64,000 nt of DNA, taken from assembly GCA_038245295.1 (NCBI GenBank), contig JBBRSP010000002.1, positions 1-64,000 of the forward strand, written 5' to 3'. Within the stretch, counting starts at the first letter, position 1. The number at the start of each line of letters is the position of its first letter. Under the pieces are notes generated by a model that did no database searches, was not told the DNA's origin, and worked only from the letters and a program-made list of their open reading frames with translations. Positions 14,594 to 37,191 of the stretch are shown here, one piece after another. The translations under genes were made by a program, and so were the position numbers. The DNA is from Candidatus Binatia bacterium. GTDB lineage: Bacteria; Desulfobacterota; Binatia; HRBIN30.

Positions 14594-14721
14594 CCTGTCC
14601 TCCTTCGGGGCGGCTAAAGTTGTGTCGCTTGTGTGCGACTCCCTTGTTGACCAACCGCCTTCGTTGTCAAGACGTCTGGTGTGGCCGGCAGTAGGTCCGT
14701 TTGATTCCCAAGGGTAGGCAA

Positions 14722-14979
14722 CGTCATCCCGGCGAACGAGACTGTCGTAAAACCAAAGTGGAGCAACGTCATCCCGGTGAAAACCGGGATCTCCTCGAGT
14801 GGAAGGCCAAGAATGATGGGGGGATACCGGCTTTCGCCGGTATGACGGAGGTGTTTGTGCAGTTTCAAACGATGAATCAGAGAAAACCGACAGTCTCTTT
14901 CGCCGGTATGACGGGGGTGTTTGCGTTGTTTCAAACTATGAATCAGAGAAAACCGACGGTCTCTTTCGCCGGAATGACG
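14722..14979. mobile_element. Nested MITE/REP cluster A (complete ~160-bp unit 14738-14897)
   Basis: TIRs GAGACTGTCG...CGACAGTCTC enclosing a CGTCATCCCGG-GAAA-CCGGGAT / ATACCGGC-TTTC-GCCGGTATGACG hairpin doublet; extra right end at 14954-14963. Confidence 0.8.
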
Positions 14980-28067: not shown

Positions 28068-28170
28068 GAGATGGCTCGCTTTCTCGTCACCAGAAAGCCT
28101 ACGGCGGCGCGCATTGCAACCAAGCCAGCATGGAGGGTAGTGGGTCCGTTTCATACCCAAGGGTAGGCAA

Positions 28171-28408
28171 CGTCATCCCGGCGGAAGAGTCTGTCGTAAA
28201 ACCAAAGTGGAGCAACGTCATCCCGGTGAAAACCGGGATCTCCCCGTGCTGGTAAGCCTCGAAAGCTGGCGAGATACCGGCTTTCGCCCGTATGACGGCG
28301 GTGTTTGCGCAGGTTCAAACGATGAATCCGAGTAAATCGACACACTCGAAAGCCGGGATCTCCTCAAGTGGAAGCCTGGGAAGGCCGGCGAGATTCCGGC
28401 GTTTGACG
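28171..28408. mobile_element. Nested MITE/REP cluster B (inner unit 28187-28347)
   Basis: GAGTCTGTCG...CGACACACTC unit inserted in a hairpin loop, flanked by GGAA/GAAA. Confidence 0.8.
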
Positions 28409-34639: not shown

Positions 34640-35683
<1,044 letters not shown>

Positions 35684-35726
35684 CTATGAGATCCATCGAT
35701 CCATCATCCAGACCAAAAGGACGAAC

Positions 35727-36098
35727 GAGACCGTCGATAAACTCGGATGCCACCCCGTGATCCCGGCGAAAGAGACTGTCGATAGCCTGAAATGGAGCAA
35801 CGTGATCCCGCCGAAAGAGACTGTCGTAAAACCAAAGTGAAGCAACGTCATCCCGGTGAAAACCGGGATCTCCCCGTGCTGGAAGCCTCGAAAGCTGGCG
35901 AGATACCGGCTTTCGCCGGTATGACGGATAGGTCTGCTCGGTTTCAAATATGGTTTCCCAGTAAATCGACACACTCGAAAGCCGGGATCTCCTCGAGTGG
36001 AAGGCCAAAAATGCTGGAGAGATATCGGCTTTCGCCCGTATGACGGGGGTGTTTGTGTGCTTTCAAACGCGTGATCAGAGAAACCGACAGTCTCGAAA
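35727..36098. mobile_element. Nested MITE/REP cluster C (inner unit 35817-35976 inside unit 35772-36094 inside a partial third copy)
   Basis: Both complete units are bounded by GAGACTGTCG...CGACA(C/G)(A/T)CTC and flanked by GAAA direct repeats. Confidence 0.85.
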
Positions 36099-36156
36099 CC
36101 CAGGGCGCGCGCCGAGTCATGCGCAGGACGGGACCGAAGGGCGCGCTTGCTTGCAC

Positions 36157-37191
36157 TCACCGGCGATTGAAGTTGTCGAGAGTGGCGCGCGCCTCCATGA
36201 GGTTGTCCAGACGCGCAACCAGCTGCAAGTCGATGTCCAACTCTCGGCAAGTCGTCTCGAGCACCAGATAGAACAATTGGCGCTGCACGACGATGCGCGT
36301 CGGTCGGCTGCCGCCCTTGAGGAGCACGTCGGCGAACGCAGCGAGGGTGTCGGCCCACAACCGTTCCCGCCCGTGCACTCCGTGCAGAATCTGGAACCCG
36401 CCAATCATTCTGGTGGCGTGGTCCACCAGCAACAGGACGTAACCGTAGTAGGGCTGATCGAGCCCCAAGTCGCGTCCTTCCATCTGCATGGATAACGAGG
36501 CGAACAGATCCACTTCGAGTGTCGAATTGTCGTGGGGTAGAGCCCGCAGCCGCTTCAACCGAATGTCATCGAGGCTCGGCGGCACCCGCGCCTCGAGTGC
36601 GGGAGAAACGGCGAAGCGCTCTGTCCACTCGTTTGGAAACTCCGGGACGCGGTGGCGCAGGAGGTAGCTGGACTCAGGCGGTGGCATGAGAATCTTCGGA
36701 TTGGCGCGCAGGCGCGAGCCCATCATGAGCAATTGTTCGAGGGCACAGCTCAACATATCGATCTCGGAACCATCGGAAACGATCCACGGCACCAGCCCGG
36801 CGCGGAAACGTCGCAGCATCGGCCAGGCATTGCGGCCGCGGAACTTCAGGCCAAGCGCCACCAGGAAAGCCTTGTCGTTGCGATCCAGTTGTTTGGCGTC
36901 CTCCCACGAGATCTGCACCTGATCGATCTCGAGAAGAACTTCGTGGTCGACCGGGTTATCCGAGTGGATTGCCGTGGCGAAATCGTCGATTGCCTGTGCC
37001 CCGAGGTAGAGTCCGACGGCAAAGTGCTCACCAAGACGTCCCATGACGGAAACCAGACCGACGCCAACCGGCGGCGGCAACTCGACAGCAAAGACTTCAC
37101 CGTCGCCCAAGATCTCCCACGGTGCCATCGCCTTCACCGCCGCCGCCAAACGCATCAGCCGCGCCCATTTCTCGAGAACAACCTCGTCCAT
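36157..37191 (-). CDS. Conserved hypothetical protein (DUF7309/DUF6930-like)
   Basis: APWEILGDGEVFAV...VSVMGRLGEHFAVGLYLG...FRGRNAWPMLRRFRAGLVPW pattern. Confidence 0.65.
   Translation of the reverse strand: MDEVVLEKWARLMRLAAAVKAMAPWEILGDGEVFAVELPPPVGVGLVSVMGRLGEHFAVGLYLGAQAIDDFATAIHSDNPVDHEVLLEIDQVQISWEDAKQLDRNDKAFLVALGLKFRGRNAWPMLRRFRAGLVPWIVSDGSEIDMLSCALEQLLMMGSRLRANPKILMPPPESSYLLRHRVPEFPNEWTERFAVSPALEARVPPSLDDIRLKRLRALPHDNSTLEVDLFASLSMQMEGRDLGLDQPYYGYVLLLVDHATRMIGGFQILHGVHGRERLWADTLAAFADVLLKGGSRPTRIVVQRQLFYLVLETTCRELDIDLQLVARLDNLMEARATLDNFNRR

Follow-up and report, generated by a model that had tools for sequence, protein, structure and literature searches.

A REP-loop-targeting MITE, very probably derived from IS1182 and carrying its own target, forms a nest in a Candidatus Binatia genome

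Among the closest described systems, IS1272/TnSha1 encodes an IS1182-family DDE transposase of about 545 aa and targets inverted repeats or hairpins, and Fig. 13c of Wan et al. draws duplication of the loop alone as a theoretical pathway (PMC5678879; PMC4923244, in their accessible text). REP sequences are hit by several autonomous insertion sequences, including ISPsy8, ISRm22, ISPpu9/10, ISPa11 and IS1106, and the available portion of the same source notes hybrid flanks for ISRm22 (PMC1525189). The hairpins relevant here have been described, in the accessible parts of two papers, as CGTC-1 REPs (PMC3733652) and through the SRM consensus of Chenal et al. (PMC11893778). The words "nested" and "IS1182" are absent from the accessible text of a 2024 review of prokaryotic MITEs (PMC10969869), and our literature search, run without subscription journals, supplements and ISfinder, found no bacterial MITE carrying the REP that it targets.

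We analyzed a stretch of 64,000 nucleotides from a Candidatus Binatia bacterium (assembly GCA_038245295.1, contig JBBRSP010000002.1, positions 1 to 64,000), here called the window, in which an initial annotation had described a self-targeting, nested MITE. Our results make it very likely that this nest is composed of an IS1182-derived, REP-loop-targeting MITE that carries its own target. In the mechanism we propose, the MITE would consist of about 20-30 bp of each IS1182-family end around a head-to-head CGTC-type REP pair, and its ends would be joined to the 5' side of 4-nt hairpin loops by a DDE transposase supplied in trans by the cognate IS. Both joins on one hairpin would duplicate the 4-bp loop; joins spread over both hairpins of a pair, whether made in one step or in two, would remove the core and leave inverted flanks. 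With the cargo serving as target, later copies would land in earlier ones, nesting in the same direction would generate 45-bp and 119-bp tandem repeats, and loss of one such repeat by recombination or slippage would yield lopsided stacks, including the present nest.

Layout of the nest and its family in the genome

Sequence reading of the nest at 35727-36098 placed three left ends at a 45-bp spacing (35727, 35772 and 35817) and two right ends at 35976 and 36094, giving the order unit C (160 bp) inside unit B (159 bp) inside the left 45 bp of unit A (Table 1). The central observation of the initial annotation was thereby confirmed: unit C (35817-35976) lies in loop 1 of unit B (35772-36094; 159 bp after removal of unit C and one GAAA) and splits it with GAAA on either side. 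The third, partial copy that it placed at 35727 is present as a left 45 bp that begins with GAGACCGTCG and lacks a right half, and unit B begins right after the CGTC arm and GAAA of this unit A. The right half of unit A was probably lost when one 45-bp/119-bp tandem repeat was lost. A GAAA direct repeat had been reported at each insertion; it is exact around unit C, but the outermost level shows only a three-of-four repeat (GAAC versus GAAA). Likewise, the exact pair of terminal inverted repeats given in that annotation occurs in unit B only, whereas unit C ends with CGACACACTC, a common subfamily variant, and not with CGACAGTCTC. Units A, B and C belong to three different subfamilies, reading Lc, Lb and La from outside to inside, and the sequences of B and C differ widely. 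The nest is intergenic between two co-oriented genes.

Table 1. Features of the nest, neighboring genes and further family members in the window
Feature	Position	Strand	Description
Left flank of the whole nest, GAAC	35723..35726	+	3/4 match to GAAA at 36095-36098 (sequence)
Unit A, left 45 bp only	35727..35771	+	IS right-end-like terminus (subfamily Lc), filler, CGTC arm, loop GAAA; right part absent
Unit B, left part	35772..35816	+	IS right-end-like terminus (subfamily Lb), filler, CGTC arm, loop GAAA
Loop GAAA in unit B left part	35813-35816		Left copy of the unit C duplication
Unit C	35817..35976	+	Complete 160-bp MITE, subfamilies La/Ra; youngest layer
Unit C cargo hairpin 1	35846..35873	+	CGTC-type REP; fits SRM consensus (PMC3733652; PMC11893778, accessible text)
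Loop GAAA of unit C hairpin 1	35858-35861		Vacant target loop
Unit C cargo hairpin 2	35899..35926	-	Head-to-head partner of hairpin 1
Loop of unit C hairpin 2	35911-35914		Vacant target loop
Unit C IS left-end-like terminus	35957..35976	-	Variant starting GAGTGTGTCG
Unit B, right part	35977..36094	+	Right GAAA copy, inner arm, spacer, hairpin 2, IS left-end-like terminus
GAAA in unit B right part	35977-35980		Right copy of the duplication
Unit B hairpin 2	about 36018-36045		
Unit B IS left-end-like terminus	ends at 36085-36094		
Right flank of unit B, GAAA	36095..36098	+	Then unique DNA, no remainder of unit A
DUF7309/DUF6930 protein gene	36157..37191	-	Context: upstream neighbor; stop about 60 bp from nest
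NAD-dependent epimerase/dehydratase gene	34640..35671	-	Context: downstream neighbor; likely start near 35623
Second family cluster	14738..14963	+	160-bp unit, then 66-bp right remainder; GAAC/TTTC flanks; core-replacement type
Third family member	28187..28347	+	Single 161-bp unit inside a CGTC loop

Weight matrices built from the ends detected 315 end matches in 137 clusters genome-wide, compared with 5 in the reversed genome; 315 is a lower bound, as the census misses ends with indels, such as the right end of unit B with its one-base deletion, and the same omission inflates the share of lopsided clusters given below. Among the 97 innermost facing pairs, 93 join one end of each type and 74 span 158-161 bp. 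The whole-genome BLAST search of the 160-bp unit suggested by the initial annotation returned 62 near-full-length matches to unit C, 16 of them at ≥95% identity; no identical copy besides unit C itself was found, so the last burst of the MITE is recent but not current. The family thus has the short length without coding capacity, the terminal inverted repeats (10 bp, imperfect in unit C) and the many dispersed copies of a MITE, and its earlier description as non-autonomous is upheld. With a crude gene caller that called 84% of the genome coding, non-coding DNA was found on both sides of 95 of the 98 clusters of at least 100 bp, which fits the "safe" landing sites proposed previously.

An Rfam search gave no match near a gathering score. 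The same loop-end junctions are present in uncultured Candidatus Binatia records, and the loop-plus-end pattern occurs in 10 of 301 genomes of the class, only four of which have more than two matches.

Target hairpins, loop duplication and core replacement

At 273 of the 315 ends, a CCGGC stem (≤1 mismatch) lies exactly one 4-nt loop away, compared with 7.6% of 20,000 random positions, in agreement with the hairpin-loop targeting put forward in the initial annotation. An exact direct repeat flanks 41 of the 97 innermost pairs (shuffled mean 14.4, maximum 29 in 10,000), and its length is 4 bp in all 41; the 4-bp target-site duplication expected of a MITE, and claimed earlier for this one, is therefore present, though not in every copy. 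When the empty sites were rebuilt, 35 of the 41 paired at ≥5 of 8 stem positions around the repeat. The 4-bp repeat together with this stem pairing demonstrates that the target duplication is the hairpin loop. Duplicated loops other than GAAA account for 17 of the 41, and the seven duplications that sit in copies of another MITE family may represent only two events. The 56 pairs without an exact duplication comprise 21 with one mismatch, 13 inverted, 8 near-inverted and 14 that are neither.

The target and cargo hairpin is a CGTC-1-type REP, with a CGTC tag, an 8-bp stem and a 4-nt loop, and both hairpins of unit C match the SRM consensus. This consensus has 300 matches in the genome (control, 29), 179 of which lie just inside an element end. 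The transposase may recognize the hairpin in its extruded form.

The 97 pairs were then sorted by the REP arm found on each side, the arm class being unassignable for 23 of them. The flanks rebuild one hairpin in 44 pairs, 41 of which have loops that are direct or one mismatch away. The outer (CGTC) arm occurs on both sides in 29 pairs, and two inner arms in a single case, in which the spacers differ. Loops of the 29 outer-plus-outer pairs are inverted or near-inverted in 15, direct or near-direct in 8 and neither in 6, and the autonomous element L091 has the same outer-arm layout. These data establish a second outcome: many copies of the MITE have taken the place of the core of a REP pair, from one loop to the other. 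By themselves, inverted flanks do not exceed the shuffled expectation (13 versus a mean of 14.2); the signal resides in the arm geometry.

As for the route, double insertion followed by recombination is possible, and the doubly occupied REP pairs that it passes through do occur in G038; only two are present in this genome, however, and this rarity favors a core replacement that would be driven by the transposase. If two hairpins were attacked in one step, a long reciprocal duplication would be expected; none turned up among the insertions. The family does not follow the IS1272-type stem-loop replacement, in which the hairpin is deleted and no duplication arises, because here the 4-bp duplication is the main outcome and core loss the minority.

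IS1182 elements with matching ends

The search for a transposase with cognate ends, also suggested in the initial annotation, was successful outside this assembly. Relatives and metagenomes contain five elements of 1,750-2,332 bp whose ends match: L080 (in G001; 1,758 bp, 544 aa), L082 (in G047), L090, L091 and L094. On the MITE matrix, their left ends reach 19-37 out of a maximum of 37; of the right ends, four score 15-18 of 32 and that of L082 scores 1. Four of the five sit in CGTC loops and the interrupted L094 in a different hairpin, consistent with the palindromic targets of some IS1182 members. Judged by sequence comparison, the MITE ends match those of IS1182 elements located in loops of the same type.

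Model scans covered two of the five, L080 and L082, and both passed the IS1182 model NF033551 (311.6 and 291 bits; cut-off 270). The initial annotation had named IS1182 and IS5 as the type of helper; the former holds, whereas an IS5-family helper was rejected, as the best IS5 score of the two was 48.7 against a cut-off of 140. The L080 protein contains the domains DUF772 and DDE_Tnp_1_6, and D, D and E motifs, which we take to be the catalytic triad of DDE enzymes, align in the four open frames of L080, L082, L090 and L091. We infer that a cognate IS1182 transposase moves the MITE.

Ends in common with an autonomous element are, as these results indicate, found in other genomes only. In the assembly of this genome, neither an inspection of facing ends 0.5-3.5 kb apart nor profile searches with NF033551, PF05598 and PF01609, with inspection of ends, revealed a cognate transposase, and the best matches to the L080 protein were 27-29% identical, none being cognate. 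Multi-copy IS elements often stay unassembled, and a cognate transposase missing from the assembly does not equal absence from the genome. The IS1182 copies of this genome were rejected as helpers on account of their different ends and their 27-29% identity to the cognate protein. This own lineage, with ends GAGCTTGTGAAA (G000:C18:1-1500, C10:118600-120100 and C45:25400; G000 denotes this genome), adjoins CGTCCCC/GGGGACG-type repeats or similar sites and may target another repeat family.

Beyond this genome, a 401-genome phylum sample gave only two distant matches at E 1e-40 or better, one of which represents another end type. Among 48 metagenome loci, five are ≥56% identical, three with both ends and two with one end, and the other 43 showed no matching end pair. 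L091 (L091:230-2090) occupies a REP pair that lies within a shell with GTTGAAAAA ends, and L138 is a more distant IS1182 element, 37% identical, with ends GAGGCTGTTGAAAAA. A CG(T/G)TTG stretch occupies positions 27-32 of the MITE left-end consensus and recurs at equal offset in L091 and L094; it is possibly, as a guess, the relic of a -35-like promoter hexamer.

Self-nesting, origin of the cargo and comparison with known systems

A simple insertion destroys one loop and brings two, and 248 of the 365 intact loops in the genome lie inside the element, about 15 of the other 117 being expected to be false; as bookkeeping, the proposed creation of new landing sites is correct. Self-targeting, as initially claimed, is borne out insofar as copies nest in their own loops, but it involves no preference: occupancy is 126/243 (52%) for loops outside the element and 53/301 (18%) for loops inside it, these counts being of junctions and not of independent events, and the loops in the element being younger. 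Since loops outside the element are the more often occupied, there is no sign of preference for self, and nesting follows from supply.

Related genomes provide a natural control. Stacked-end matches number 32 for 192 loop junctions in this genome and 2 for 26 in G001, which has REP-carrying copies, compared with 2 for 78 in G038, 0 for 31 in G047 and 0 for 12 in G002. Neither of the two G038 matches has a REP arm, and the G038 elements that were inspected carry other cargo repeats. This comparison, which comprises five related, fragmented genomes and is not a statistical test, supports the REP cargo as the cause of stacking.

Two further explanations of the nests have to be weighed, the first being that short-read assembly joined different copies of a repeated 160-bp sequence and so produced chimeric nests and mismatched flanks. 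The assembly comprises 129 contigs, many element pairs lack a duplication, and none of the listed pieces of sequencing run X1 bridges 35868-35987, so that the right junction of unit C is seen in this assembly alone. Against this, a separate assembly of run X1, which is possibly the source sample and not independent evidence, shows four of the five junctions with identical sequence: one contig equals 35300-35867 without any difference and spans all three left junctions, and a second matches 35988-36500 and spans the right junction of unit B. Random mis-joins would give outer-plus-outer and inner-plus-inner arms equally, and the observed 29 versus 1, or 16 versus 1 when restricted to single elements, argues against random mis-assembly. 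Site-specific duplications are retained (e.g., TAAA, ATCT and AGTC), and similar stacks are present in G001. We therefore regard chimerism as very improbable; the empty-site alleles that the initial annotation proposed to look for were not seen for the nest site in the sequencing-run contigs. The second explanation, that the stacks owe their growth chiefly to unequal recombination or to slippage of 45-bp units and not to repeated insertion, would account for the lopsided state of 31 of the 44 multi-end clusters in the end census and for the four stacked 45-bp units at G000:C9:157814-158167, and IS1272L has a tandem 25-bp end duplication (PMC5678879, accessible text). It is unlikely overall, and for mixed stacks it is already largely refuted: 23 of the 31 stacked same-type end pairs are of mixed subfamily in a fixed order, Lb holding La 18 times and La holding Lb never; balanced nests have separate inner and outer duplications, the outer being exact in 7 of 13; and A, B and C of this nest are three subfamilies. 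Composite transposition, using the outer end of the host and the far end of the insert, explains lopsided stacks as well as loss of one tandem repeat does. The long arrays on C9, C5 and C22, of which C5:95098-95436 and C22:5121-5230 are tandem repeats of cargo segments, are slippage on top of nesting.

A third reading concerns the cargo and is compatible with the hairpin-targeting mechanism. REP pairs may spread alone, perhaps helped by a GIY-YIG nuclease of the Ssn type, and insert into remnants of IS ends, which would make self-nesting an unselected by-product; we consider the chances of this about even. Unrelated palindromic pairs lie between the same IS1182 ends in this genome (192-bp and 130-bp types), as do others in G038, G047 and G002, the CGTC pair also occurs inside two unrelated shells here, a 95-aa GIY-YIG gene on contig C22 is flanked by SRM matches, two further small GIY-YIG genes are bracketed by a third cargo repeat, and there is no preference for self. 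CGTC-1 pairs inside 41-bp palindromes also appear in the accessible text of Di Nocera et al. (PMC3733652). On the other hand, no empty shell was found in our searches, the shortest paired elements (122-128 bp) being deletion derivatives, and the spread of repeats by Ssn nucleases is a hypothesis only in the accessible text of PMC11893778. The other cargo in the same ends, the CGTC pair in other shells and the SRM-flanked gene are better explained by insertion of REP pairs and IS-end shells into each other than by a single capture. It is a tentative and rather doubtful proposal that target-carrying is a selected, self-renewing strategy, by which the element always has harmless sites available, becomes more numerous than sister MITEs with different cargo and acts as the main CGTC/SRM multiplier in its lineage, holding about two thirds of intact loops. 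If it were true, DDE-driven MITE shells would be one means by which CGTC REPs are spread in the absence of a RAYT, and a single IS1182 enzyme would produce loop duplication on one hairpin or IS1272-like replacement on a pair.

Several observations describe the other residents of these repeats. The stand-alone 95-aa GIY-YIG gene (G000:C22:5100-6100; L197:1492-1779) has the size (~95 aa) and the position between SRMs of an Ssn gene, and several of its flanking hairpins have been hit by the MITE; with its CGTC/SRM hairpins it looks like a candidate Ssn nuclease cassette. The two small GIY-YIG genes at G000:C12:172419-172634 and C43:25299-25514 each lie between inverted CTTCGAC...GGCTCAG-family repeats (92 matches), and a 130-bp MITE sharing the IS1182 ends also carries this repeat. 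A RAYT/REPtron partner was rejected, as no CGTC arm was present within 400-600 bp of any of the 5 Y1 genes, three of which lie near contig ends. A second MITE family, whose ends start with CAATGTCGTTAAGTT, gave 23 end matches (0 in the control) and occurs at G000:C11:196100-196290 and about 13 other loci. Its cargo is a CGTC pair whose loops are GGAG, and it lies within CCCTCACCC/GGGAGAGGG repeats. Many of its copies contain the IS1182 MITE, which was probably amplified passively within them. A third shell, starting GGTAGTGGGTCCGTTTGA (window 14690-14737 and 28140-28186; G000:C5:63980-64150), also carries the CGTC pair and hosts both other MITE clusters of the window. Elements of 192-217 bp with the same IS1182 ends (G000:C5:75788-75979, C6:1573-1764 and C45:22959-23175) have a CTTCGAGAC...CTCCTCAGC repeat pair as cargo and are inserted in CGTC loops.

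Taken together, these natural insertions, about a hundred in number, place the cut of a hairpin-targeting IS1182 enzyme at the edge of the 4-nt loop, and one family displays two outcomes, loop duplication and core loss. With intact candidate transposases named, the poorly known target choice of IS1182 becomes testable with a 160-bp substrate. The MITE also offers an example of a bacterial element renewing its own non-coding landing sites, and it carries a REP family reported to have no transposase.

The MITE resembles IS1272/TnSha1 in its hairpin targets, in the possibility of partial target deletion and in tandem duplicated ends (PMC5678879; PMC4923244). In the accessible text of these papers, IS1272 shows no duplication and no sequence preference, whereas the MITE mostly duplicates the 4-nt loop, and that of one REP family, and so mostly follows the loop-duplicating alternative of Wan et al. 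Unlike IS1272, it combines duplication with core loss, is non-autonomous and has its target as cargo. The REP-targeting insertion sequences likewise insert at a fixed point of the REP and make a short duplication; for ISPsy8 and ISRm22 this point is the symmetry axis. They are autonomous members of IS3, IS4, IS110 or IS5, and REP carriage is not reported in the accessible part of that source (PMC1525189). QMITE2 of Coxiella burnetii is also a bacterial MITE with a REP serving as an IS target, but its REP is GTAG-type and hit by IS1111, and self-insertion is not described in the available text (PMC5896051). CGTC-1 REPs and the NTS-SRM/Ssn system have the same hairpin, head-to-head pairs and a small GIY-YIG gene among the repeats; the accessible portions of these papers, however, describe no MITE that targets and carries such repeats (PMC3733652; PMC11893778). 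The plant MITEs Castaway and Gaijin similarly form multimers by self-insertion, but are eukaryotic, depend on other transposase families and, in the text available, have no REP cargo (PMC5172404). The parts of the present system are thus each of a known kind and have been published separately, and their combination is little described in print.
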